This document shows positions 5,590 to 14,755 of a DNA stretch of 64,000 nucleotides, in pieces. Positions within the stretch are counted from its first letter, which is position 1. Each line of letters begins with the position of its first letter. Source of the DNA: Polyangiaceae bacterium (GTDB lineage Bacteria > Myxococcota_A > Polyangia > Polyangiales > Polyangiaceae). The stretch spans positions 92,477 to 156,476 of the forward strand of contig JANRKO010000092.1 in NCBI GenBank assembly GCA_033763455.1. The letters run 5' to 3'. The notes under the pieces are model-generated. The model was not told the DNA's origin and did not search any database. It saw only the letters and a list, made by a program, of their open reading frames with translations. Both the position numbers and the translations under genes were made by a program.

Positions 5590-6246
5590 ATGAATCAGTT
5601 TCCGGGTGTCTTTGGTCGCAAAGTTGGCATGACACAGATTTTCACCGAGGACGGCACCGTCGTTCCCTGCACCGTGGTCGAGAGCAAGCCCGTCGTGGTG
5701 GGCAAGCGCACGAAGGAGAAAAACGGCTACGACGCCCTCCTGCTCGGTCTGGGCCAGCGCAAGCCGAAGCACGTTAACAAGCCTCTTGCCGGGTTCTATA
5801 AGGGCATGAGCCACGCGCCTGCGGCTATCCTCCGTGAGCTCCGTTGCGCGGCAGAGTTCGCGTCCAAGTACGAGGTCGGACAGGAAGTGAAGCTCGACGA
5901 AGTTTTCCAAGAAGGCCAGTCCGTGGACGTCCAGGGTGTTACGCGCGGTCGCGGCTTCACCGGCGTCATGCGCCGCCACAACTTCAAAGGCGCTAAGCGC
6001 AGCCACGGTGCTCACGAGTATCAGCGCCACGGCGGTGCCATCGGTACCAACATGACGCCAGGTCGCGTCATGGCCGGCAAGCGCATGCCGGGACAGTACG
6101 GCAATGAGCAGGTCACCGTGCACAATCAGCCCGTGGTCAAAGTCATGGCCGATCAAGGCCTCTTGTTGATCCGCGGCGCGATCCCGGGTGCCAAGAATGG
6201 CCTCGTTGTGGTGCGCGGCGCTGTTAAAGTTCGCAACATTAAGTAA
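5590..6246 (+). CDS. rplC: 50S ribosomal protein L3
   Basis: GRKVGMTQIF..GRGFTGVMRRHNF..SHGAHEYQRHGGAIG..PGRVMAGKRMPG; ATG 5590 with AGGA upstream. Confidence 0.97.
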   Translation: MNQFPGVFGRKVGMTQIFTEDGTVVPCTVVESKPVVVGKRTKEKNGYDALLLGLGQRKPKHVNKPLAGFYKGMSHAPAAILRELRCAAEFASKYEVGQEVKLDEVFQEGQSVDVQGVTRGRGFTGVMRRHNFKGAKRSHGAHEYQRHGGAIGTNMTPGRVMAGKRMPGQYGNEQVTVHNQPVVKVMADQGLLLIRGAIPGAKNGLVVVRGAVKVRNIK

Positions 6247-6337
6247 CAGGGATCCACGCCCGACAGATGCCGTTCGCACTTTGGCGATCGGCGCATTCCG
6301 CCAGGGCGAAACGGCTACCAGTGGCGCGATGCGCACA

Positions 6338-7753
6338 CTATGCCATGAGGAGTTCCCGTCCCCGGACTATGTGAACGCCGCCCAGGACGCGCGGCGCGCC
6401 TCTAGAAACCTCCGGGACTAACAGCGCTCGAACTACTGACTCCGCCTTGAAGCGCAAGGCGGGCGCGGGCAGCAGCTTACGTGCTGTCTCGTGAGCAAGC
6501 CGCTCAAGCTCGCGAACATCAAAGGGGCGCGCTGACCACTTCACCTCAGCGGTAAGGAGCCGTTTACCATCGTCCGACGCGCTAACGAGATCCCACTCGG
6601 GGGCGTTCCCTCGCCACCAGCGCGCGGGGGTGCGCCATGGTCCGAGCCGTCCGAGAGCTGAGCGGTGGTCGATATCAGTGACAAATGTTCGACACAATTC
6701 CTCCCAAGCCAAGGCAGCGAGAATGGGCCAGTGCGTGCGCAAGAGGGCAATTCGCTCGTTAGCCTTACTCGAAGCCAAGCGTCCGCGATTGGGAGCTACC
6801 ACTCGAAACCAGAGGCGCGCGAACGGATCATTGAGCTTGTACAGGCTGCGTTTGCTGAGGTGTTCCGGCTCGCCGTAAGGAACTTCGCGGGAAATCAGAC
6901 CTAGCTCCTGTAGGCGTTGGAGAGGCCGCGACAGTGAAGTAGCTTTCCATCCGATGCGACCTGCAATCTCCGAGGCCCGGTGCACCCCTTGCCCGACAGT
7001 ATCAAGGATCGGACGCAGCTCAACTGCTGAAGGGACTTCCTCCAGAAGCAGCCGATCGGGCTCCGTGTGCAGTGGCCCAAGCGGGTTCAAAACAAGGGCA
7101 TCAATCTGAGATTCCACGCCGTTGCCAGCTTCGACGGCGAGCTCCCAGTAGCGCGGCACGCCACCCCAGGCCGCATACAACTGGACCAGCTCGATGATCG
7201 AACGCTTGCCGAAGGCGCTGGGCAGGTACCGCGGCGACAAAGGCTTGACCTCGAATAGCGCTTCGGCCCGACCATAAAGTGGCGCAGATGCGGCCAGCAC
7301 CAAACCTTGCATCATGCGCTGGCTGGACCCAGCGAGTGCAAGCGTTAGCCGAGCGGCTTTGGCCTCGTGGTCGATGAAGCGCTGCAGCACACTCGCGATC
7401 TCCGGCGCTGCGAACGCCAGATAAGGGAGCTCGTCTATCACCAACGGGCCATGCCACTTTCGAGCTCGTGCATCGCGCGCAAGGCGCGAAAATAAACTCG
7501 CCCAATCCGGGTACTCAACGTCCGCGAACCCCGGCAACACCTGAGCAACAGTGCTGGCGAAGTAGCGTCGTTGCACCTCGGGCGCGGATTGATCGGCGAC
7601 GGTATAGAGCCCCCCGTTTCGCTCTGCCCATTCAAGAAGCAGGCGAGTCTTCCCGATTCGCCGCCGCCCATAGACAACAGCTAACCGCCCCCCGGTACCG
7701 GAAAGCAGGCGCACCAGTACTTCCATCTCCTCATTTCGGTTGATGAAGCGCAT
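6338..7753 (-). CDS. AAA-family (archaeal-type) ATPase with wHTH and C-terminal DUF234/PD-(D/E)xK-like domain
   Basis: MRFINRNEE, Walker A YGRRRIGKT, Walker B VIDELPYL, GGVPRY, YKLNDPFARLWF, C-terminal EWDLV..AEVKW. Confidence 0.85.
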   Translation of the reverse strand: MRFINRNEEMEVLVRLLSGTGGRLAVVYGRRRIGKTRLLLEWAERNGGLYTVADQSAPEVQRRYFASTVAQVLPGFADVEYPDWASLFSRLARDARARKWHGPLVIDELPYLAFAAPEIASVLQRFIDHEAKAARLTLALAGSSQRMMQGLVLAASAPLYGRAEALFEVKPLSPRYLPSAFGKRSIIELVQLYAAWGGVPRYWELAVEAGNGVESQIDALVLNPLGPLHTEPDRLLLEEVPSAVELRPILDTVGQGVHRASEIAGRIGWKATSLSRPLQRLQELGLISREVPYGEPEHLSKRSLYKLNDPFARLWFRVVAPNRGRLASSKANERIALLRTHWPILAALAWEELCRTFVTDIDHRSALGRLGPWRTPARWWRGNAPEWDLVSASDDGKRLLTAEVKWSARPFDVRELERLAHETARKLLPAPALRFKAESVVRALLVPEVSRGAPRVLGGVHIVRGRELLMA

Positions 7754-7793
7754 TATGCTGGGAAACATAATGCAATACCGCATAATATGTCAA
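7751..7793 (-). promoter_or_regulatory. Promoter/operator of the AAA ATPase gene
   Basis: Perfect -35 TTGACA (7788-7793, minus) with N18-TATGTT; inverted repeat CATTATG-N8-CATAATG (7751-7772) plus third half-site CATAATA (7781-7787). Confidence 0.55.
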
Positions 7794-7937
7794 ATGGCGT
7801 GCGCGTCCGCGGCGGAAAACGCCCGTACCATGAAAATCCTCAGCCGAGATGAGCGCTTTGACAAGAAGAGCGGTGGGGCTCGCGAACGAACATGGCGCCC
7901 ATCGCAACAAGCTGAGCTTGAGCGTTGATCCCTTTGA

Positions 7938-8084
7938 TCAGGGGCAGCCGATGTCTACGTCTAAAGTGAGCACGGGTGCCCCTTGTAGGGCTGCCGCGAC
8001 ACCACCCACGACCATAAACTCCACACGGTGCTCGCACAGCACTCGGAGCATTTTTCCCCAATCGACTACCGCCATTGGTGCCAT
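7938..8084 (-). pseudogene. Truncated nucleotidyltransferase (Pol-beta superfamily, DUF6036-like)
   Basis: Manual translation MAPMAVVDWGKMLRVLCEHRVEFMVVGGVAAALQGAPVLTLDVDIGCP*; GG..DxD motif followed almost at once by a stop. Confidence 0.75.
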
Positions 8085-8102
8085 GCGCAGAAGCGGAATC
8101 CG

Positions 8103-8213
8103 CTACTCCACGGCGGGAATACGACGGACTGAAGCCAGCGAGTTCAGGAAATTTTCCACGGCCTTGAGGCGTTCGGTAGGCGTTAAACCAAGATATCCCG
8201 ATTCGTCGGTCAC
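8103..8213 (-). pseudogene. Short ORF or remnant resembling the small partner gene found upstream of such nucleotidyltransferases
   Basis: VTDESGYLGLTPTERLKAVENFLNSLASVRRIPAVE*; LTPxERL motif; GTG overlaps the GGDEF stop (GTGA). Confidence 0.5.
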
Positions 8214-8938
8214 AAAGGACGCTCTATGCGTGCGCCACAGTTGGGGCAGAATAGCTCGCCCTGATGAGGGCTCCCGAGCGGAACTTCCAAAGTGAACGAC
8301 GAATTGCACTCGCGACAGTCATCGCGAATGCTGCGGCGCTGCGCCTTCTCGACGTCAGGAGAGTAGCGGATAACGCAGTTTCGGCCTTGGATTTTGGCCG
8401 TTCCCACGGTTGCCTCGAGCATGCGCATTGCAACCCGATGTGTGAGAATCTCATCGCCCGTATCGTCAGAAGTCATCCACCCAATGCTGACAGTGCAGCT
8501 CATCGTGCCATGCTCGGTTGAAACCGCAATGCCTTCGATTTCTGCGCGCAAGCGCTGAAGCGCGTCGTGAATTGAGCCTTCGACGACATTGGGGCCTTTA
8601 GGCCCAAGCAGATAGAACTCATCTCCGTGTGCACGAATGGGCATGGTACTAGCGATGTAGTCCTCAAACGCTGCCAGCCGCTTCCCAATCTTCTGAAGTA
8701 GGCCGTCCGCTAGTTCGTACCCAAATTTGTCGTTGACGCGCTTGAAGTAATCGACCTCGATGAATGCAAACCAGAAAGGCTCACCGCGTTCCAGTGCGTT
8801 CCTCAGGCTTTCTGCGAGCGCCTGATCATTGCCGAGCCCGGTGAGCCGATCACGGAGCTGCTCCTCGCGGACAAGCGCTTCAATCTGCCGTTGCAGCTCC
8901 CCAAGCGCGGCTTCCAACTTCTGAGTCTGCTGTGTCAA
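8210..8938 (-). CDS. Variant GGDEF protein with N-terminal coiled coil and C-terminal Zn ribbon
   Basis: DRLTGLGN, EVDYFKRVNDKFGY..AD, RAHGDEF, TVSIG, AK..GRN; CRECNS..FCPNCG. Confidence 0.9.
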   Translation of the reverse strand: MTQQTQKLEAALGELQRQIEALVREEQLRDRLTGLGNDQALAESLRNALERGEPFWFAFIEVDYFKRVNDKFGYELADGLLQKIGKRLAAFEDYIASTMPIRAHGDEFYLLGPKGPNVVEGSIHDALQRLRAEIEGIAVSTEHGTMSCTVSIGWMTSDDTGDEILTHRVAMRMLEATVGTAKIQGRNCVIRYSPDVEKAQRRSIRDDCRECNSSFTLEVPLGSPHQGELFCPNCGARIERPL

Positions 8939-9243
8939 CTCAAGGCACCGGAAATCTCGAGCGCGAGTCGGCGGGGGTTTTCGTAAGGCTGCCCCTCCAC
9001 TGGGACATCAACACTCACCATCCGCCCGTCGGGAAGCTCGCTCGTGACGACCCAAACGGGTGCTCCGTGCCGCCTTCCCAATTCTGCAGAGACAAGGCGA
9101 AACCCACGTTCTCGGAGCTCATCTCTCAGCGCGTTGTCAAACGACCTGCGCGCCGGCTCTCTCGATGAGCCAGCAAGGGCCAGCAAGCCGAGGGCGGCAA
9201 GACCACCTGCCACCCACATTGCCGAGCTATCCTGCTTCGCCAC
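8935..9243 (-). CDS. Small hypothetical protein with one N-terminal TM helix
   Basis: 102 aa, hydrophobic WVAGGLAALGLLALAG, AGGA upstream of GTG, TTGA overlap with the GGDEF start. Confidence 0.75.
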   Translation of the reverse strand: MAKQDSSAMWVAGGLAALGLLALAGSSREPARRSFDNALRDELRERGFRLVSAELGRRHGAPVWVVTSELPDGRMVSVDVPVEGQPYENPRRLALEISGALS

Positions 9244-9342
9244 ACATCTATCCTAGGCTGTGGTGCACGAACCGGCAAGCACGAGCGGGGGAGACTCTGA
9301 CTTCGAGAAAAGGCGGATATCATTCGGTTTATTTATAGTTCA

Positions 9343-9371
9343 TTGAATATGTGCGCGATGATGTATACGGT
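9343..9371 (+). promoter_or_regulatory. Putative sigma70 promoter (possibly leaderless transcript) for the HTH-STAND gene
   Basis: TTGAAT-N17-TACGGT ending 7 nt before GTG 9379, in an AT-rich patch. Confidence 0.45.
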
Positions 9372-9378
9372 GGGTATA

Positions 9379-12300
9379 GTGAAAAATTCATTCGATCTGA
9401 AGTCATCTCGCACCCGCCTTTCATTAACCCAGGCGGCGCTCGCCGACCGTCTAGGGCGTGCAACAAACACGATCGCTCGCTGGGAGCGGGGGGAACTTGC
9501 GGTGCCGGAAGACGTTCGGCGCGTCGTCGAAGCGTTAATTTCAGGACCGGCTGCAAGGCTTCCCGTCCCCGACGTTGTCACGCTCGACACGTTTCATTCA
9601 GATATTGTTGCTGCTCTGCATGAGCACGTTGACCCCGCTGTGTTCGAGGAGTGCGCAGCTAACCTACTGAGAGAGCAATGGCCTAAACTTGTCCCCGTTC
9701 CGGGCGGAAGCGATGACGGGTTCGACGGAGCTGTCGCCGGGGATGAAGGCACGAGGCCATGGCCCTTAATTGTCACGACGGATCGAAAGCCGGAGCGCAA
9801 TCTGAGCCGTAGCCTCAAGCAGGCGATTACCAAGGGGCACAACCCTAAGGTCGCAATTTTTGCAACATCGCGAGCGCTGACGCCTGGCCAGCGGCGCAAA
9901 CTTAACGACGCTGCTACGGCGTGTGGGGTAGTGCTTCAGCAGATCTATGACCGTTCCTGGTTCGCGGCCGCTCTGTACCGACATCCAGAGTGGTGCAATA
10001 AGCTGCTCGGCCTTACAGGAACCCCAGATCCTCTGTCTAGATTGCCGCTCTTGCTTAGGCTGGGGGGCACACATGAGATGCTCGGGCGATCATCCGAGCT
10101 CGCTAAAGCGCGCGAAACCGAGTCCGACGTGATCCTCTTAGGCGGTCCGGGGTCAGGGAAGACCATGCTGCTCCTACGGCTTGCTGATGACGGCTACTTT
10201 TTGTCGGACGGTGACCGAAATGCGGTGACGAATTCGATTCGTCGCCACTCGCCGAGGGTCGTGATTGTGGACGACGCGCACGATAACTTCACGCAGTTCG
10301 GTTTGTTGGTGAAGCTACGCAGGCAGCTAGGTGCTAAGTTTCGGATTGTCGTAAGCGCGTGGCCGCCCTACCTCGAAGATCTCCGTGAACATCTACCTAA
10401 TGCCGAGGTTGTGAGTCTAGGCGAGCTCGACGCTGACGTAGTCGCAGATATCGTTCGTTCCATAGTGCCGAATCTTCCAAACCAAGCCATCAAAGTAATC
10501 GTGCGGCAAGCTGATGGTCGCCCTGGCCTCGCAGCTACTCTGGCACATATGTGCATTGATGGACGCTACCGAGATGTAATGACTGGCGATGCTGTTTATG
10601 AGCGCTTGGGCAGCTACGTGGCGAAGGACCGAGAGTTGTTGGGTTGCTTTGCGGTGGCAGGTGACGCTGGCCTCCAGCTGGAGGATGCCGCAACGTTCCT
10701 TGGCCGACCGAAGGATGACGTGCAACGGGCGTTGACGCGCCTAGCTGCTGGTGGCGTCATTCGCGTCAGCGGCAGCAGACACTTTTCAGTCTGGCCGGAG
10801 CAATTGCGGTACGTCCTCGTTCGGGAAGTCTTTTTTCACGAGCGCAATGGGCTCGACTATGAACAGTTGGTTGCAAAGGTTTTCAATCGAAGTGCATGGC
10901 TTCGTGTGCTCATTGGGGCAACCCGTTCAGGAGCGCAGGTGCCGCGTCTCCAGGATAGGTTGGAGGAAGTGAACCAAGTGCAGCTCTGGTGCGAATACGC
11001 TTCCCTAGATCCGCAAGCCGCGAGCTACGTTCTCGACAAGCATCCAGAAATGCTCGTGGAAGCGGCGCCAGAGCTCTTGTGGCACGTGCCGGATCGCGCA
11101 CTTTCGAAGCTGCTCGACGCGGCCGCTCGGGGAGGGGCGCCTAGTGGTCGTGACGCTCCTGCGCTGACGGCGTTGCGAACGTGGCTGAGAGATTCCTCAA
11201 TGGACGAGAGAGTTGTCATTGCGAGGAGTCAGGAGGCCGCAAAGCAGGTTCTGAAGTGGATCAAGCGAAATGAGAACCATGCCGGAGCAATCGTCTTCTG
11301 TATCGCGATGAGTCCGATTTTGCAGGTGACAGAGAGTGATCCGGGCCGAGGTATGACGTTGACCTATCGCCGTGGTGCTGTGGGTGATTGGGGTATTGGG
11401 CAACTCACAGCGCTTTGGGATGCAGCACTACCGGACCTAATGCGCGCTCGTTCGCTGCCATGGGGTCACCTCTTGGACCTAGTAAATGAGTGGGCTCGCC
11501 CTGACGGCGGGATCCCCATAACTGCCGAGGCGAGGCGCATGATGCGCGACCTTGCCTGCAAAATGGTGCGTGACGTCGTCCCGCTCGCGAAGGCTCATCC
11601 AGGTGCGCAGCGAAGGCTGGCGGAAGTCGCTCGGACATTGGAGATCTCGGGGGAGGTGGACTTCCCCGACGTGGGGGCCGACGTGGGCGCGCTTTTTCCG
11701 CGCTTGGACAGGCACTCGGTCGACGACTTAGAGGCCGTCATGAAGAGTCATGTAAAGAGGGTTCGGGAATGGGCGCGGGTCCGCATCGATGTAAAAGACG
11801 TTGGCGAGCTGGTCCGATCCGTGCTTTCGCTCCAACAGCAACTGAACGAAGCGAAAGCTCGATCCGACAACTACGTGTGGGCGGCCTTCGACGAGTTTGC
11901 CCGGGGTACGTCAACGCCTACGGAGTGGGTCGATGCTTTAGTTGCAGAGCGTGCGGACCCCGCTCTGGTATGGCCCTTCGTACGACGGATCATAGACGAG
12001 GGCAGCGAGCTTGCGACGCTATTGGGGCTTCTGAAGGAGGACCGCTATACGGGATTACTTGCCGAAGGCGCCGTCATGTCAAAGAGTGCCCACGCCGAGG
12101 TCGTCGAATGGGTTGATTGCAAGGCCGCTGACTACGTTGAACAAATCTCCTGTCAAATCCGGGTGGGCAATGTTGGCGATGATCGAGTGCTCGCATTTCT
12201 CCATCACCGCGACCCACGCGTTCGCGCTGCAATTGCGGTGGCATATTATGTCCGGGAGAAGAATCCTTCCGACGAGCTCGGGAGTGCTTGGCGCAATGCG

Positions 12301-12936
12301 ATAATCGACACGGCTCGGGTCCCCGAACTACCGAGTCAGTACGAGTACTGGTTAAAACAGATTCTGACGCAGAACGTTGAGCTCGGTTCAGAATGGCTAA
12401 AGGCTCTCCTTGAGATCGAGAACGATGATCTTTCCTTTCACGATATCGGTCTCGAAGTCGCTGACAGGCTCGCGTTCGCGGCAAAGGCGGATATTCTTCA
12501 CTCGGCAAAGTTTGGCGTGCATCAGGCTGAGTTTCTCACGCATCTGGTGGGCGGAGATCCGAAGCTCTATGAAATGCTCCTGGAGCGTCGAGATCTCGCG
12601 GAGTATCACCTTGAGCCGCTCGCTTGCCGCTCGCGACTCGTGGACTCATTCTCCGGACCGATGAACCCGCGGAGGGGGTGGGCGGAGTTGTCAGCAATGG
12701 CGTTGGAACGAGGCTTCTCCGAGGATGAAGTGTTTAGAGCGATCCTGCCACGGTCGTGGGGCTTCACGGGCAGCGAAGTCCCTCTATGGCAGGGCTGGCG
12801 CGATGATTTTGAAAAATTTGAATCCCATTCCGAGCCAGCGGTGCGCCGAGTCGCCTCCCGTGGGAAGAGCGAGATGGATCGACGTCTTGCCGCAGCTCGG
12901 GAGCGTGAACGGATGGACGCCGTCCGCGGGGTCTGA
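9379..12936 (+). CDS. XRE-HTH + Mrr/REase-like fold + STAND-type P-loop ATPase with long helical C-terminus (Avs/NLR-like defence candidate)
   Basis: LTQAALADRLGRATNTIARWERGE (HTH); FEECAANLL..GGSDDGFDG (REase-like); GGPGSGKT; VVIVDDAH; GRPGLA (GxP). Confidence 0.8.
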   Translation: MKNSFDLKSSRTRLSLTQAALADRLGRATNTIARWERGELAVPEDVRRVVEALISGPAARLPVPDVVTLDTFHSDIVAALHEHVDPAVFEECAANLLREQWPKLVPVPGGSDDGFDGAVAGDEGTRPWPLIVTTDRKPERNLSRSLKQAITKGHNPKVAIFATSRALTPGQRRKLNDAATACGVVLQQIYDRSWFAAALYRHPEWCNKLLGLTGTPDPLSRLPLLLRLGGTHEMLGRSSELAKARETESDVILLGGPGSGKTMLLLRLADDGYFLSDGDRNAVTNSIRRHSPRVVIVDDAHDNFTQFGLLVKLRRQLGAKFRIVVSAWPPYLEDLREHLPNAEVVSLGELDADVVADIVRSIVPNLPNQAIKVIVRQADGRPGLAATLAHMCIDGRYRDVMTGDAVYERLGSYVAKDRELLGCFAVAGDAGLQLEDAATFLGRPKDDVQRALTRLAAGGVIRVSGSRHFSVWPEQLRYVLVREVFFHERNGLDYEQLVAKVFNRSAWLRVLIGATRSGAQVPRLQDRLEEVNQVQLWCEYASLDPQAASYVLDKHPEMLVEAAPELLWHVPDRALSKLLDAAARGGAPSGRDAPALTALRTWLRDSSMDERVVIARSQEAAKQVLKWIKRNENHAGAIVFCIAMSPILQVTESDPGRGMTLTYRRGAVGDWGIGQLTALWDAALPDLMRARSLPWGHLLDLVNEWARPDGGIPITAEARRMMRDLACKMVRDVVPLAKAHPGAQRRLAEVARTLEISGEVDFPDVGADVGALFPRLDRHSVDDLEAVMKSHVKRVREWARVRIDVKDVGELVRSVLSLQQQLNEAKARSDNYVWAAFDEFARGTSTPTEWVDALVAERADPALVWPFVRRIIDEGSELATLLGLLKEDRYTGLLAEGAVMSKSAHAEVVEWVDCKAADYVEQISCQIRVGNVGDDRVLAFLHHRDPRVRAAIAVAYYVREKNPSDELGSAWRNAIIDTARVPELPSQYEYWLKQILTQNVELGSEWLKALLEIENDDLSFHDIGLEVADRLAFAAKADILHSAKFGVHQAEFLTHLVGGDPKLYEMLLERRDLAEYHLEPLACRSRLVDSFSGPMNPRRGWAELSAMALERGFSEDEVFRAILPRSWGFTGSEVPLWQGWRDDFEKFESHSEPAVRRVASRGKSEMDRRLAAARERERMDAVRGV

Positions 12937-13144
12937 GGGAACGCGGCCGCTCAAGAGAAGGCGCCGCCAACTGCCACTTAATCCCCCAGGGATCGCGTCC
13001 CAAAGGAGGCCCGTTTTGGAAGGCGCAAAAAACCCTGAAGCCGTTGATTCGCCTCGGACCCTCCACAGGCACAGAGCTAGAAAAGCACCCCGTGTCCGTA
13101 ATCCTCCTAGCTTTTCCGTGCCGCCTCCGGCAAGGAACCCCATC

Positions 13145-14755
13145 GTGGCAGAGTTGCTGAACACAGGGTGGCCTGAACGTCGCGTGCTCAGCGACGAAAA
13201 CGGCTTGCTAGTGGTGGATAAGCCCGCCGGAATTCCCGTGCATGGCGGCGACGAAGGCTTGAAAGACGACGTGGTTTCGCGCTTGGCGGGGTGGTTCCGC
13301 GCGCACGGTGAATCAGAATATTTGGGCGTGCATCAGCGGCTTGATAAAGAGACCTCGGGGGTCCTCGTTTTTACGCGCAGCGAGCACAGAAATCGCGATG
13401 TGGCCGAGGCGTTCGAGTCTCATACGGTGCAGAAGAAGTACGTCGCGCTCGCGTCGTTGGCCGGCGTGAAAGCTGGGCAACTCAAGCGTTTGGAGGGCAC
13501 CTGGGAGGATAGATTGAGCAAACCGGAGAAGGGGCGAGTGAGCGTGGCGCGAACGGGAGGGCTTGAAGCCGTTACCCGGTGCCGAGTGCTCGAACAGTGT
13601 GGCCAGCGCGTCCTCATGGAGCTCTCTCCCGTCACCGGCCGCACCCATCAGTTGCGTGTGCAAGCGAGCGCACGAGGCATTCCCATTGTGGGGGATAGCA
13701 TTTACGGAGGGGAGCCCGCCTTGCGTTTGATGCTGCACGCTCACGAGCTCAAGCTGCCGAAGCAAAAGGCTTGGGTGGCGCCTATTCCGGGGGTGTTCCG
13801 CGATTGGTTGTACCAGCGGCCTTTTGATTTTGAAACCGAGGAGCTGAAGGGGCGCCTTCTGGATTCGTTTTTTCAGCGCGAGCCGCTTTCCGCCGAGAGC
13901 AACACGTATCGGCTAGTGAATGATCTGGGCGATCAATTGCCAGGCGTATGTATCGATAAATTTGGGGATTCCGCCGTGGTTTCCCTGTTTGATGAGCGCG
14001 CCTCGGCAGCCGGTGAAAAGCTGAGTGGGCTCTTGTTGGACATGGGATTTTCGCGCGTGCGTGTGGAGCATCGGGAGCGCGCCGTCACCAAAGTTCTCTC
14101 TGCACCAGCAGTGTTCACGGTGCAGGAGCATGGCGCCAACTTTGAGGTGCGGTTTGACGACGACTCATCCGTTGGGCTGTTTCTCGATCAACGCGAAAAT
14201 CGCCAACGCCTGCGGGCATTGTCGAAGGGGCTCCGGGTGCTCAACTTGTTTTGCTACACGGGGTCCTTCAGCGTTGCGGCGGCGCTCGGTGGAGCGCGCC
14301 AAGTGGTGAGCGTCGATCTGTCGGGTAGGTACCTTGAATGGGCGAAGCGCAACTTCGAGCTCAATGGTCTTACGGTTGATAGGCACGAGTTCATTCAAGC
14401 GGATGCTACGGTGTGGCTTGAACAGGCAGCTCGGCAGAAGAGGGTCTTCGATTTCATCGTGCTGGATCCTCCGAGCTTCTCAAGTGTGGGCAAACGGAAG
14501 ACCTTCAGTGTTGCTCGGGATTACGCCGAGACGGCCTCCCAATGCCTCCGCCTATTGGCCCCAGGAGGCCAGCTTTTGGCCGTCACTAATCACCGAAAAA
14601 CACCGCTACCTAAGCTCAGATCCGAGCTTCGAAAGGCCGCGGCGAGCGCGGGGCGCACCGTGCTTCAGCTTAAGGATATCCGCTCGGGTCGCGATTGCCC
14701 CGACTTGCTGAACGAGCCTCATCCGAGCAAAAGTGTGCTCGTGCGCGTAAAGTGA
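13145..14755 (+). CDS. Fusion of RluA-family pseudouridine synthase and RlmI/RlmK-like SAM methyltransferase
   Basis: VVDKPAG, HQRLDKETSG, TGRTHQLRV, LMLHA; then GLFLDQRENR, VLNLFCYTGSFS, IVLDPPSF; start GTG 13145. Confidence 0.9.
   Translation: MAELLNTGWPERRVLSDENGLLVVDKPAGIPVHGGDEGLKDDVVSRLAGWFRAHGESEYLGVHQRLDKETSGVLVFTRSEHRNRDVAEAFESHTVQKKYVALASLAGVKAGQLKRLEGTWEDRLSKPEKGRVSVARTGGLEAVTRCRVLEQCGQRVLMELSPVTGRTHQLRVQASARGIPIVGDSIYGGEPALRLMLHAHELKLPKQKAWVAPIPGVFRDWLYQRPFDFETEELKGRLLDSFFQREPLSAESNTYRLVNDLGDQLPGVCIDKFGDSAVVSLFDERASAAGEKLSGLLLDMGFSRVRVEHRERAVTKVLSAPAVFTVQEHGANFEVRFDDDSSVGLFLDQRENRQRLRALSKGLRVLNLFCYTGSFSVAAALGGARQVVSVDLSGRYLEWAKRNFELNGLTVDRHEFIQADATVWLEQAARQKRVFDFIVLDPPSFSSVGKRKTFSVARDYAETASQCLRLLAPGGQLLAVTNHRKTPLPKLRSELRKAAASAGRTVLQLKDIRSGRDCPDLLNEPHPSKSVLVRVK

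Follow-up and report, generated by a model that had tools for sequence, protein, structure and literature searches.

Among described systems, those closest in layout to the gene reported here are the restriction endonuclease (REase)-bearing antiviral STAND (Avs) proteins, namely Avs4 (Mrr-STAND-TPR, PDB 8dgf) and Avs3, 7, 8, 11, 12, 14 and 16–21, in which one gene encodes an N-terminal PD-(D/E)xK fold, a STAND nucleoside triphosphatase (NTPase) and a long helical sensor. A survey of this class (Lee et al, 2026; PMC13581612) distinguishes 589 clades of STAND proteins and 90 clusters of sensors, introduces the names Avs7–24 and describes, for Avs7, a sensor-gated STAND oligomer that activates the N-terminal effector. 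According to its source data, killing was relieved by the Q/E-x-K double mutation in 12 of the 13 Avs proteins in which it was made. Q/E-x-K is the presumed on-switch of REase effectors, and mutating it is the standard way to disable Avs proteins. Here, we describe a gene of this layout from a 64,000-nucleotide stretch (the window) of a Polyangiaceae bacterium (GCA_033763455.1, contig JANRKO010000092.1, positions 92,477–156,476, forward strand). It occupies 9379–12936 (+) of the window and encodes an XRE-type helix-turn-helix (HTH), an Mrr-fold domain (N-domain) without Q-x-K, a STAND NTPase and a helical sensor. The protein resembles Avs, cannot be assigned to any named Avs and does not have the motif III expected of an Mrr nuclease. 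We consider it probable that it is a single-gene Avs-type receptor with the Q-x-K-less N-domain as its own effector. Its family, with more than 1,000 clusters and a fixed loss of Q-x-K, offers a test of whether an REase fold kills without the motif, be it through new chemistry or without catalysis.

Architecture and predicted fold

The open reading frame (ORF) starts with GTG and encodes 1185 aa without internal stops. The longest open frame begins upstream, at TTG 9343; we favoured 9379 because HTH-bearing homologues align from query residues 2–13. All motifs named in a preliminary description of this DNA were located where it had placed them. The HTH (residues 7–55, 9397–9543; Pfam HTH_31, E = 2.9e-6, above the Pfam cut-off over residues 7–53 with 27.9 vs 27 bits) precedes the Mrr-like PD-(D/E)xK-fold domain (residues 68–213, 9580–10017), which contains FEE..L (89–96), GGSDDGFDG (109–117) and LIVTT (130–134). 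The nucleotide-binding domain (residues 232–350, 10072–10428; boundaries assigned from the AlphaFold2 model) holds G236-R237, Walker A (255–262, with K261/T262), Walker B (295–301, with D298/D299), R314 and W328. A helical domain with the GxP motif (GRP, 380–382) and a winged helix (about 411–490), conventionally called HD1 and WHD, occupy 10429–10848, with boundaries that we assigned, and the sensor (residues 491–1185) follows at 10849–12933. The tail had been described as about 650 aa, predominantly helical and ending in SWGFTGS..HSEPAVRRVA. In the model it is indeed helical except for one beta-hairpin (647–667), but it is about 695 aa long and continues for 26 residues beyond those motifs (1126–1159), as part of a 31-residue terminal helix.

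Walker A (GKT) and Walker B (hhhhD) are both intact, and the model and its structural matches contain a GxP-bearing helical domain and a winged helix. These features place the protein in the STAND NTPase superfamily, and an effector, a STAND module and a helical sensor of at least 400 aa on one chain are the architecture of the Avs class. In a 130-row alignment, K261, R237, R314 and W328 were each conserved in 130/130 rows, D298 in 128/130 and the proline of G380-x-P382 in 125/130.

The whole-protein AlphaFold2 model (60-row alignment, mean pLDDT 88.6, pTM 0.81) shows an HTH, an alpha/beta domain, a P-loop domain, a helical domain, a winged helix and the helical tail. Foldseek ranked Avs3 (8dgc, E = 1.8e-9), Avs4 (8dgf), a STAND-TPR protein, Avs5 (9jap) and SAMD9 highest, with Avs3, Avs4 and Avs5 structures at ranks 1–4 and 6. 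By VIA-align, the best match was Avs5 (Z 11.6, root-mean-square deviation (rmsd) 11.1 Å, 409 residues aligned); NRC4, Apaf-1 and Cdc6 also matched the STAND module. The Avs/NLR-like effector-STAND-sensor reading is supported by this architecture and these matches. The match to Avs5 (SIR2-nSTAND3; 9jap, 9nc9) and SAMD9 covers the NTPase and the proximal sensor; unlike Avs5, the effector here is an Mrr fold rather than SIR2, identity is 10% and the rmsd is 11 Å. That Avs5 carries nSTAND3 is reported in the accessible portion of a preprint (10.1101/2025.07.08.663546).

Folded alone (pLDDT 90.3) and compared with 48,161 chains using VIA-align, the N-domain best matched AF1548 (Z 9.0, rmsd 3.0, 107 aligned), MspJI (Z 8.8, rmsd 3.8, 134 aligned), AspBHI (Z 8.5, rmsd 4.0, 135 aligned) and the Mrr domain of Avs4 (Z 8.4, rmsd 3.6, 128 aligned), followed mostly by other restriction-fold nucleases. 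Mrr_cat was a weak match in 32 of 67 N-domains (best E = 4.5e-5), ESM Atlas gave 0.93 and hhalign 95.4%. The preliminary description had called this segment Mrr-like and would have given up its reading had the segment lacked an REase fold and the protein clustered with non-defence regulators; the fold instead matches restriction nucleases.

Profile resources held little for the rest of the chain. For the window protein, the HTH alone exceeded Pfam cut-offs, with NACHT, nSTAND3 and nSTAND5 as sub-threshold Walker A matches, and neither NCBIfam nor PADLOC contained a full-length match. Among 36 members scanned, one had a Pfam domain above cut-off besides the HTH (a generic AAA_33), and nSTAND3 (PF20720) stayed below cut-off in the window protein and all 36 (best 25.6 vs 27.2 bits). 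The hidden Markov models (HMMs) of Avs1–5, Dsr1 and NACHT in PADLOC 2.0 matched neither the window protein (E ≤ 0.1) nor 28 family members (E ≤ 0.01), and the PDC-S73 HMM reached E of about 1e-3 over the Walker A region in 2 of 28. The proposed comparison with Avs1–5 and nSTAND HMMs yielded no assignment. PDB sequence searches with family profiles returned Walker A matches or noise alone. For the sensor, the best results were E = 0.029 among PDB sequences and an unnamed ESM Atlas entry at 0.81, with nothing usable in NCBIfam or PADLOC; with the sensor modelled as part of the whole chain, the fold searches say little about it, and it may be related to the Avs7 or Dsr1 sensors. Relative to the REase-bearing Avs proteins, the family lacks Q/E-x-K, has a compact NTPase and an unmatched sensor, is 9–13% identical and gave Avs HMM matches in 0/30 proteins at E ≤ 0.01.

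The family and its missing Q-x-K motif

A phmmer search of 1.84 billion representatives (clusters at 50% identity) identified 1,406 homologue clusters at E ≤ 1e-3, of which 673 reached E ≤ 1e-30. Because 673 representatives match at the stricter threshold, the motif set is more than a chance assembly. Of the 150 matches listed, most span the full length, with identities near 30%. A 10-row profile recovered 550 family members among 8,000 scored candidates, and the few that are named are called "hypothetical protein". Two sets of loci were assembled: a genome scan, biased by its use of the DxGxD pattern, confirmed 96 loci, of which 80 were kept, and a scan seeded on the NTPase alone gave 80 metagenome loci (160–161 loci in both sets). 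The hosts of the first 80, nearly all metagenome-assembled genomes, include Chloroflexota, Planctomycetota, Acidobacteriota, Gemmatimonadota, Verrucomicrobiota and Bdellovibrionota, among others. The family was present in 1 of 400 genomes sampled from the host phylum, and 0 of 40 genomes of the host's relatives had a full-length match. It is large, patchy and uncatalogued in the HMM libraries searched. In the literature searched, mostly papers outside subscription, we found no description of a Q-x-K-less Mrr-STAND family.

For the N-domain census, 353 family rows yielded 341 with a full N-domain and 198 at ≤70% identity. F89, D112, G114, D116, T133 and N141 were present in 198/198, E90 in 187 (Q in 11) and T134 in 172. 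The preliminary description had noted that the expected (D/E/Q)xK strand reads LIVTT in the window protein, and the loss proved true of the whole family: K, Q, E or D occurs at positions 131–134 in 0/198, and K at 135 in 1/198. The site instead reads (V/I)-(C/T/V/A/S)-T-T. The motif I Glu and motif II D-x-G-x-D are retained; motif III (Q/E/D)-x-K is absent. Both a 158-row phmmer set and the NTPase-seeded scan agreed with this census, in which the DxGxD pattern of the genome scan is a bias. In the latter, 78/80 loci carry the N-domain, and the exceptions are a D116N substitution (L152), a missing T133 (L177) and an apparently broken gene (L199). Q-x-K was found in 31/31 canonical Mrr domains, a partly circular control since these were picked by high Mrr_cat score, and in 120/120 rows of a sister family, Mrr_cat-nSTAND3.

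This sister family (PADLOC candidate PDC-S73, about 755 aa) is the closest in sequence that we found (hhalign 96.6% for the N-domain, 97.0% over 83–460). The two have FE, DxGxD, TSxxLT and the following helix in common; the sister differs in having Q53 and K55 in 120/120 rows and a C-terminal part that cannot be aligned with the sensor studied here. It gave 2,147 matches among 8,000 candidates (L124; P0275–P0394), occurs in cultured hosts, e.g., Vibrio and Aeromonas, and with its intact Q-x-K is a natural canonical control.

The register of the motif III strand is ambiguous, with covariation giving two registers (z 3.9 vs 4.8) and hhalign a third at low confidence (I131/V132/T133 on Q/C/K), but K and Q are lost under all three. 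A catalytic Lys or Glu moved to the second core helix is a known REase-fold variant, according to the accessible text of PMC3424549. In that helix, the family has N141 in 198/198 and R/K144 in 143/198, with no invariant Lys or Glu.

The N-domain is the best-conserved part of the protein (0.64, compared with 0.57 for the nucleotide-binding domain and 0.34–0.43 for the sensor). Its ratio of nonsynonymous to synonymous substitution rates (dN/dS) was 0.06–0.17 in 8 of 13 pairs (5 were saturated, and the pairs share one reference), comparable to the NTPase at 0.09–0.17. Its conservation and the purifying selection on it mean that it is no relic in decay. The suggestion that the effector is dead is not supported in the sense of decay, though the domain may still be non-catalytic. 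By these alignments, the loss of Q-x-K is ancient and has become fixed, and the N-domain is required, whether as a catalyst or otherwise. Separate degenerate Mrr proteins convergently adjoin the family gene at three Chloroflexota loci (L061:11470–12048, L062:11502–12080 and L069:11518–12090, minus strand). They read R-C-I/L where the Mrr of L057 reads Q-C-K and their motif II is eroded, giving the look of decayed Mrr in contrast with the family's N-domain.

Insertion, neighbours and effector exchange

The gene lies in an insertion of about 6.9 kb (approximately 6250–13145) between rplC and an rluA-rlmI-like fusion gene. In 3/3 genomes of the same genus these flanks are about 45 bp apart, so about 6.9 kb with four genes was inserted; DNA similarity to the congeners ends at 6229 and returns at 13192. 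The window contains no tRNA, repeats at 6–13.4 kb are of chance size only, and the GC content of the STAND gene, overall and at third codon positions, is close to the host's. It is single-copy in its genome (G000). As for the flanks themselves, rplC (5593–6246, +) is outside any ribosomal operon, beside an opposite-strand rplS and upstream of the pseudouridine synthase-methyltransferase fusion (13146–14755, +), to which it is adjacent in 3/3 congeners.

The effector slot is exchanged in 3/160 loci, for a SEFIR/TIR domain (L184, E = 1e-14), a hydrophobic transmembrane (TM)-like segment (L080, by eye) and a short low-complexity peptide (L193). No partner gene is conserved across the family loci. 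Of the 391 ORFs that lie within 3.5 kb, we scanned the nearest 146, which come from 76/80 loci (Pfam covered 129/146), and found matches to Mrr, NucC-like, Shedu, AbiEii, TumE, RmrA and type IIG and III restriction-modification proteins, as well as to TIR, PD-lambda-4, AbiJ, SIR2 and AlbA_2. PADLOC matched 27/146 of these compared with 11/135 random host ORFs (Fisher p = 0.014), or 13/146 compared with 1/135 once housekeeping-like and PDC-S01/S03 matches were dropped (p = 0.0016); the control is 135 of 141 ORFs called in one unmatched genome, the loci are related and the curation is our own. By this proxy of ours, rather than by DefenseFinder, the family has a defence-type effector or neighbourhood, and we take the neighbourhood as moderate support for a defence role. 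The insertion missing from all three congeners, the exchange of the effector slot and the listing of the sister family as a PADLOC candidate add to this support. At one locus, a PD-lambda-4 A (Avs8)-like protein (L088:11892–14726, −) adjoins the family member.

Mechanism, rival explanations and co-inserted genes

By analogy with Avs3, Avs4 and Avs7, the helical tail would bind a conserved phage protein, the STAND module would exchange ADP for ATP and oligomerise, and the clustered Mrr-fold domains would kill or arrest the infected cell. In the N-domain, E90, D112 and D116 are kept, and the invariant T133 and N141, perhaps with R/K144 of the next helix, might replace the Gln and Lys. The likeliest form, although with somewhat less than an even chance in our view, is that the N-domain is a metal-dependent DNA-cutting enzyme with such a remodelled site; that it gives its output without catalysis, by binding DNA or protein, comes close behind. 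The fullest version of the proposal, an unnamed Avs-class family, over 1,000 clusters strong and mostly from uncultured lineages, with an uncatalogued sensor and a new E-DxGxD-T-N site that would cleave nucleic acid or some other phosphodiester, we advance only tentatively. The uncatalogued sensor possibly implies a new phage trigger and is well suited to the phage-gene toxicity screen already published. A complex prediction (two copies of REase plus STAND, residues 67–489, with ATP and Mg) scored 0.00 and carries no weight either way.

Several points weigh against an Avs-type receptor with its own effector. The case is built from sequence and predicted structure, and the matches to Avs structures score modestly (TM-score about 0.2, large rmsd). 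Killing needed Q/E-x-K in the 12 of 13 Avs proteins noted in the source data of PMC13581612. No invariant lysine replaces the lost one (R/K144 143/198, R/K172 170/198), D116N occurs in 2/341 rows as well as in L152, and L177 lacks T133. E90, D112 and D116 are ancestral (119/120 in the sister family) and may have been retained for structure or DNA binding. Family members are absent from the 72,556 plasmids, the phages and the IMG/VR contigs searched. The neighbour control is a single unmatched genome with our own curation, defence genes make up the minority of nearest neighbours, and 10 of the 27 PADLOC matches are one clade's PDC-S01-like ATPase, which has a host background of 4/135.

The rival that survives best, close behind the remodelled nuclease and itself a branch of the main reading, is a defence receptor with a non-catalytic pseudo-nuclease, whose oligomerised Mrr fold would bind DNA, a nucleotide or a host protein and cut nothing. 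Gln and Lys are both gone, and the Gln position holds a buried-type Val/Ile in the profile alignment; Q/E-x-K mutation inactivated 12 of the 13 Avs proteins in which it was tried, so that a fold without either residue is usually no nuclease. Inactive REases have been proposed as nucleotide sensors or decoys in the accessible part of a preprint (10.1101/2025.10.09.681413), and Pfam holds a NACHT-associated inactive REase family (NA-iREase1, PF22722) with an REase fold lacking the full motif and fused, by its name, to a STAND-class NTPase. In contrast, the inactive REase described in the part of that preprint available has no conserved residues, whereas three acidic, metal-type residues are near-invariant here. 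For 67 N-domains searched at E ≤ 1, PF22722 is missing from the 25 families shown out of 30, which leaves room for a match in one member at most. A precedent for the main reading, in which killing dispenses with the pair, is EcAvs19, which per the source data of PMC13581612 remained toxic with Q70A-K72A and lost toxicity on deletion of residues 2–215. As would hold for the proposed receptor, it requires its N-terminal region; it differs in still having Q-x-K, is at least 918 aa long and was compared through mutant data, not by sequence. The family could also explain this exception.

A second rival, which we regard as unlikely, identifies the family with an Avs that already has a name, the best candidates being Avs13 (tail nozzle) and Avs15 (tail terminator). 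In the available source data of PMC13581612, HjAvs13 (D47A) and ApAvs15 (D53A) are the sole two mutated at Asp rather than at Q/E-x-K. In HTH-less family members, D-x-G-x-D falls at about 46–53; the agreement is one of residue numbering alone. Other effector types also use Asp at that position. Further members numbered 0 in 399 other genomes of one sample of Gammaproteobacteria, the class holding Halomonas and Acinetobacter, and, as above, 0 in the plasmid sample. Seven PMC13581612 files, all source data rather than sequence tables, lacked the family motifs. The chance that the family is an untested STAND cluster of Lee et al (2026) is about even, in which case its value narrows to the active-site observation.

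Similarly improbable is a non-defence signalling or transcription regulator whose HTH and dead nuclease fold bind DNA. MalT and AfsR are STAND regulators of this kind. The window gene has an XRE HTH, many neighbours of the family are housekeeping genes, and non-defence clades are interspersed among defence STAND clades in the part of the survey available (Lee et al, 2026; PMC13581612). Yet the HTH is present in 1/80 genome and 2/80 metagenome loci and missing in 157/160, and immunity is the better fit for the TIR/SEFIR and TM swaps, the scatter over unrelated phyla, the insertion in a single lineage and the defence neighbours. Among alignment rows, the HTH occurs in 29/341, a frequency inflated because the query itself carried one. 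All 29 fall in one 36-row subclade of a quick tree of 86 selected rows (SH-aLRT 84, not starred), with 5 HTH changes vs 24.4 when shuffled. The HTH is therefore an optional, subclade-specific fusion, and the self-regulation suggested for the window protein is not a general trait. Autoregulation within that subclade is plausible; upstream of the gene there is no sigma-70 site, and the single 5-bp inverted repeat (9364–9378) is too short to count as an operator.

The weakest rival, a dead effector whose output comes from a neighbour (the adjacent TM/GGDEF pair here, an AbiEii-like nucleotidyltransferase directly upstream in about 9/80 loci or an AAA_14/DUF4143 ATPase in 10/80), is highly improbable: the pair does diverge from the STAND gene within the same insertion, but 0/161 family loci (1.8 Mb; many loci are short) have a TM, GGDEF or DUF234-ATPase gene, the coupled upstream genes each keep mainly to a single host lineage, and in the majority of loci no neighbour recurs. 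What remains beyond these readings and the Avs-type receptor falls to other explanations.

The pair in question consists of a small N-terminal-TM protein (8935–9243, −) overlapping a GGDEF (AHGDEF)-Zn-ribbon gene (8210–8938, −), together 8210–9243. It recurs as a unit in three genomes without a family match (G217, G222 and G409; GGDEF protein 39–45% identical), which apparently come from the same 401-genome phylum sample, as judged from identical tallies. The proposal that it supplies the STAND protein's output is thus not supported: the pair is a module of its own, a co-passenger of the island outside the STAND system. The fourth inserted gene encodes an ATPase_2 and DUF234 protein (6338–7783, −; PADLOC candidate PDC-S27, E = 2.9e-35).

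The AAA_14/DUF4143 (PDC-S01-like) ATPase abuts the family-gene start in one mostly Gemmatimonadota clade (L052, L056, L067, L071, L073, L074, L077, L084, L087 and L088), and the AbiEii-like nucleotidyltransferase overlaps or abuts it mostly in Thermoanaerobaculia (L031, L033, L046, L048, L050, L054, L055, L060 and L064). No viral relative of the GGDEF protein was found. In the three other phylum genomes, the order TM then GGDEF (AHGDEF)-Zn-ribbon is conserved (L226, L227 and L228), and in L227 the pair sits, by eye, between a type I restriction-subunit-like helicase and a Fic-like gene. The pair is a candidate stand-alone cyclase and membrane module for defence or signalling.

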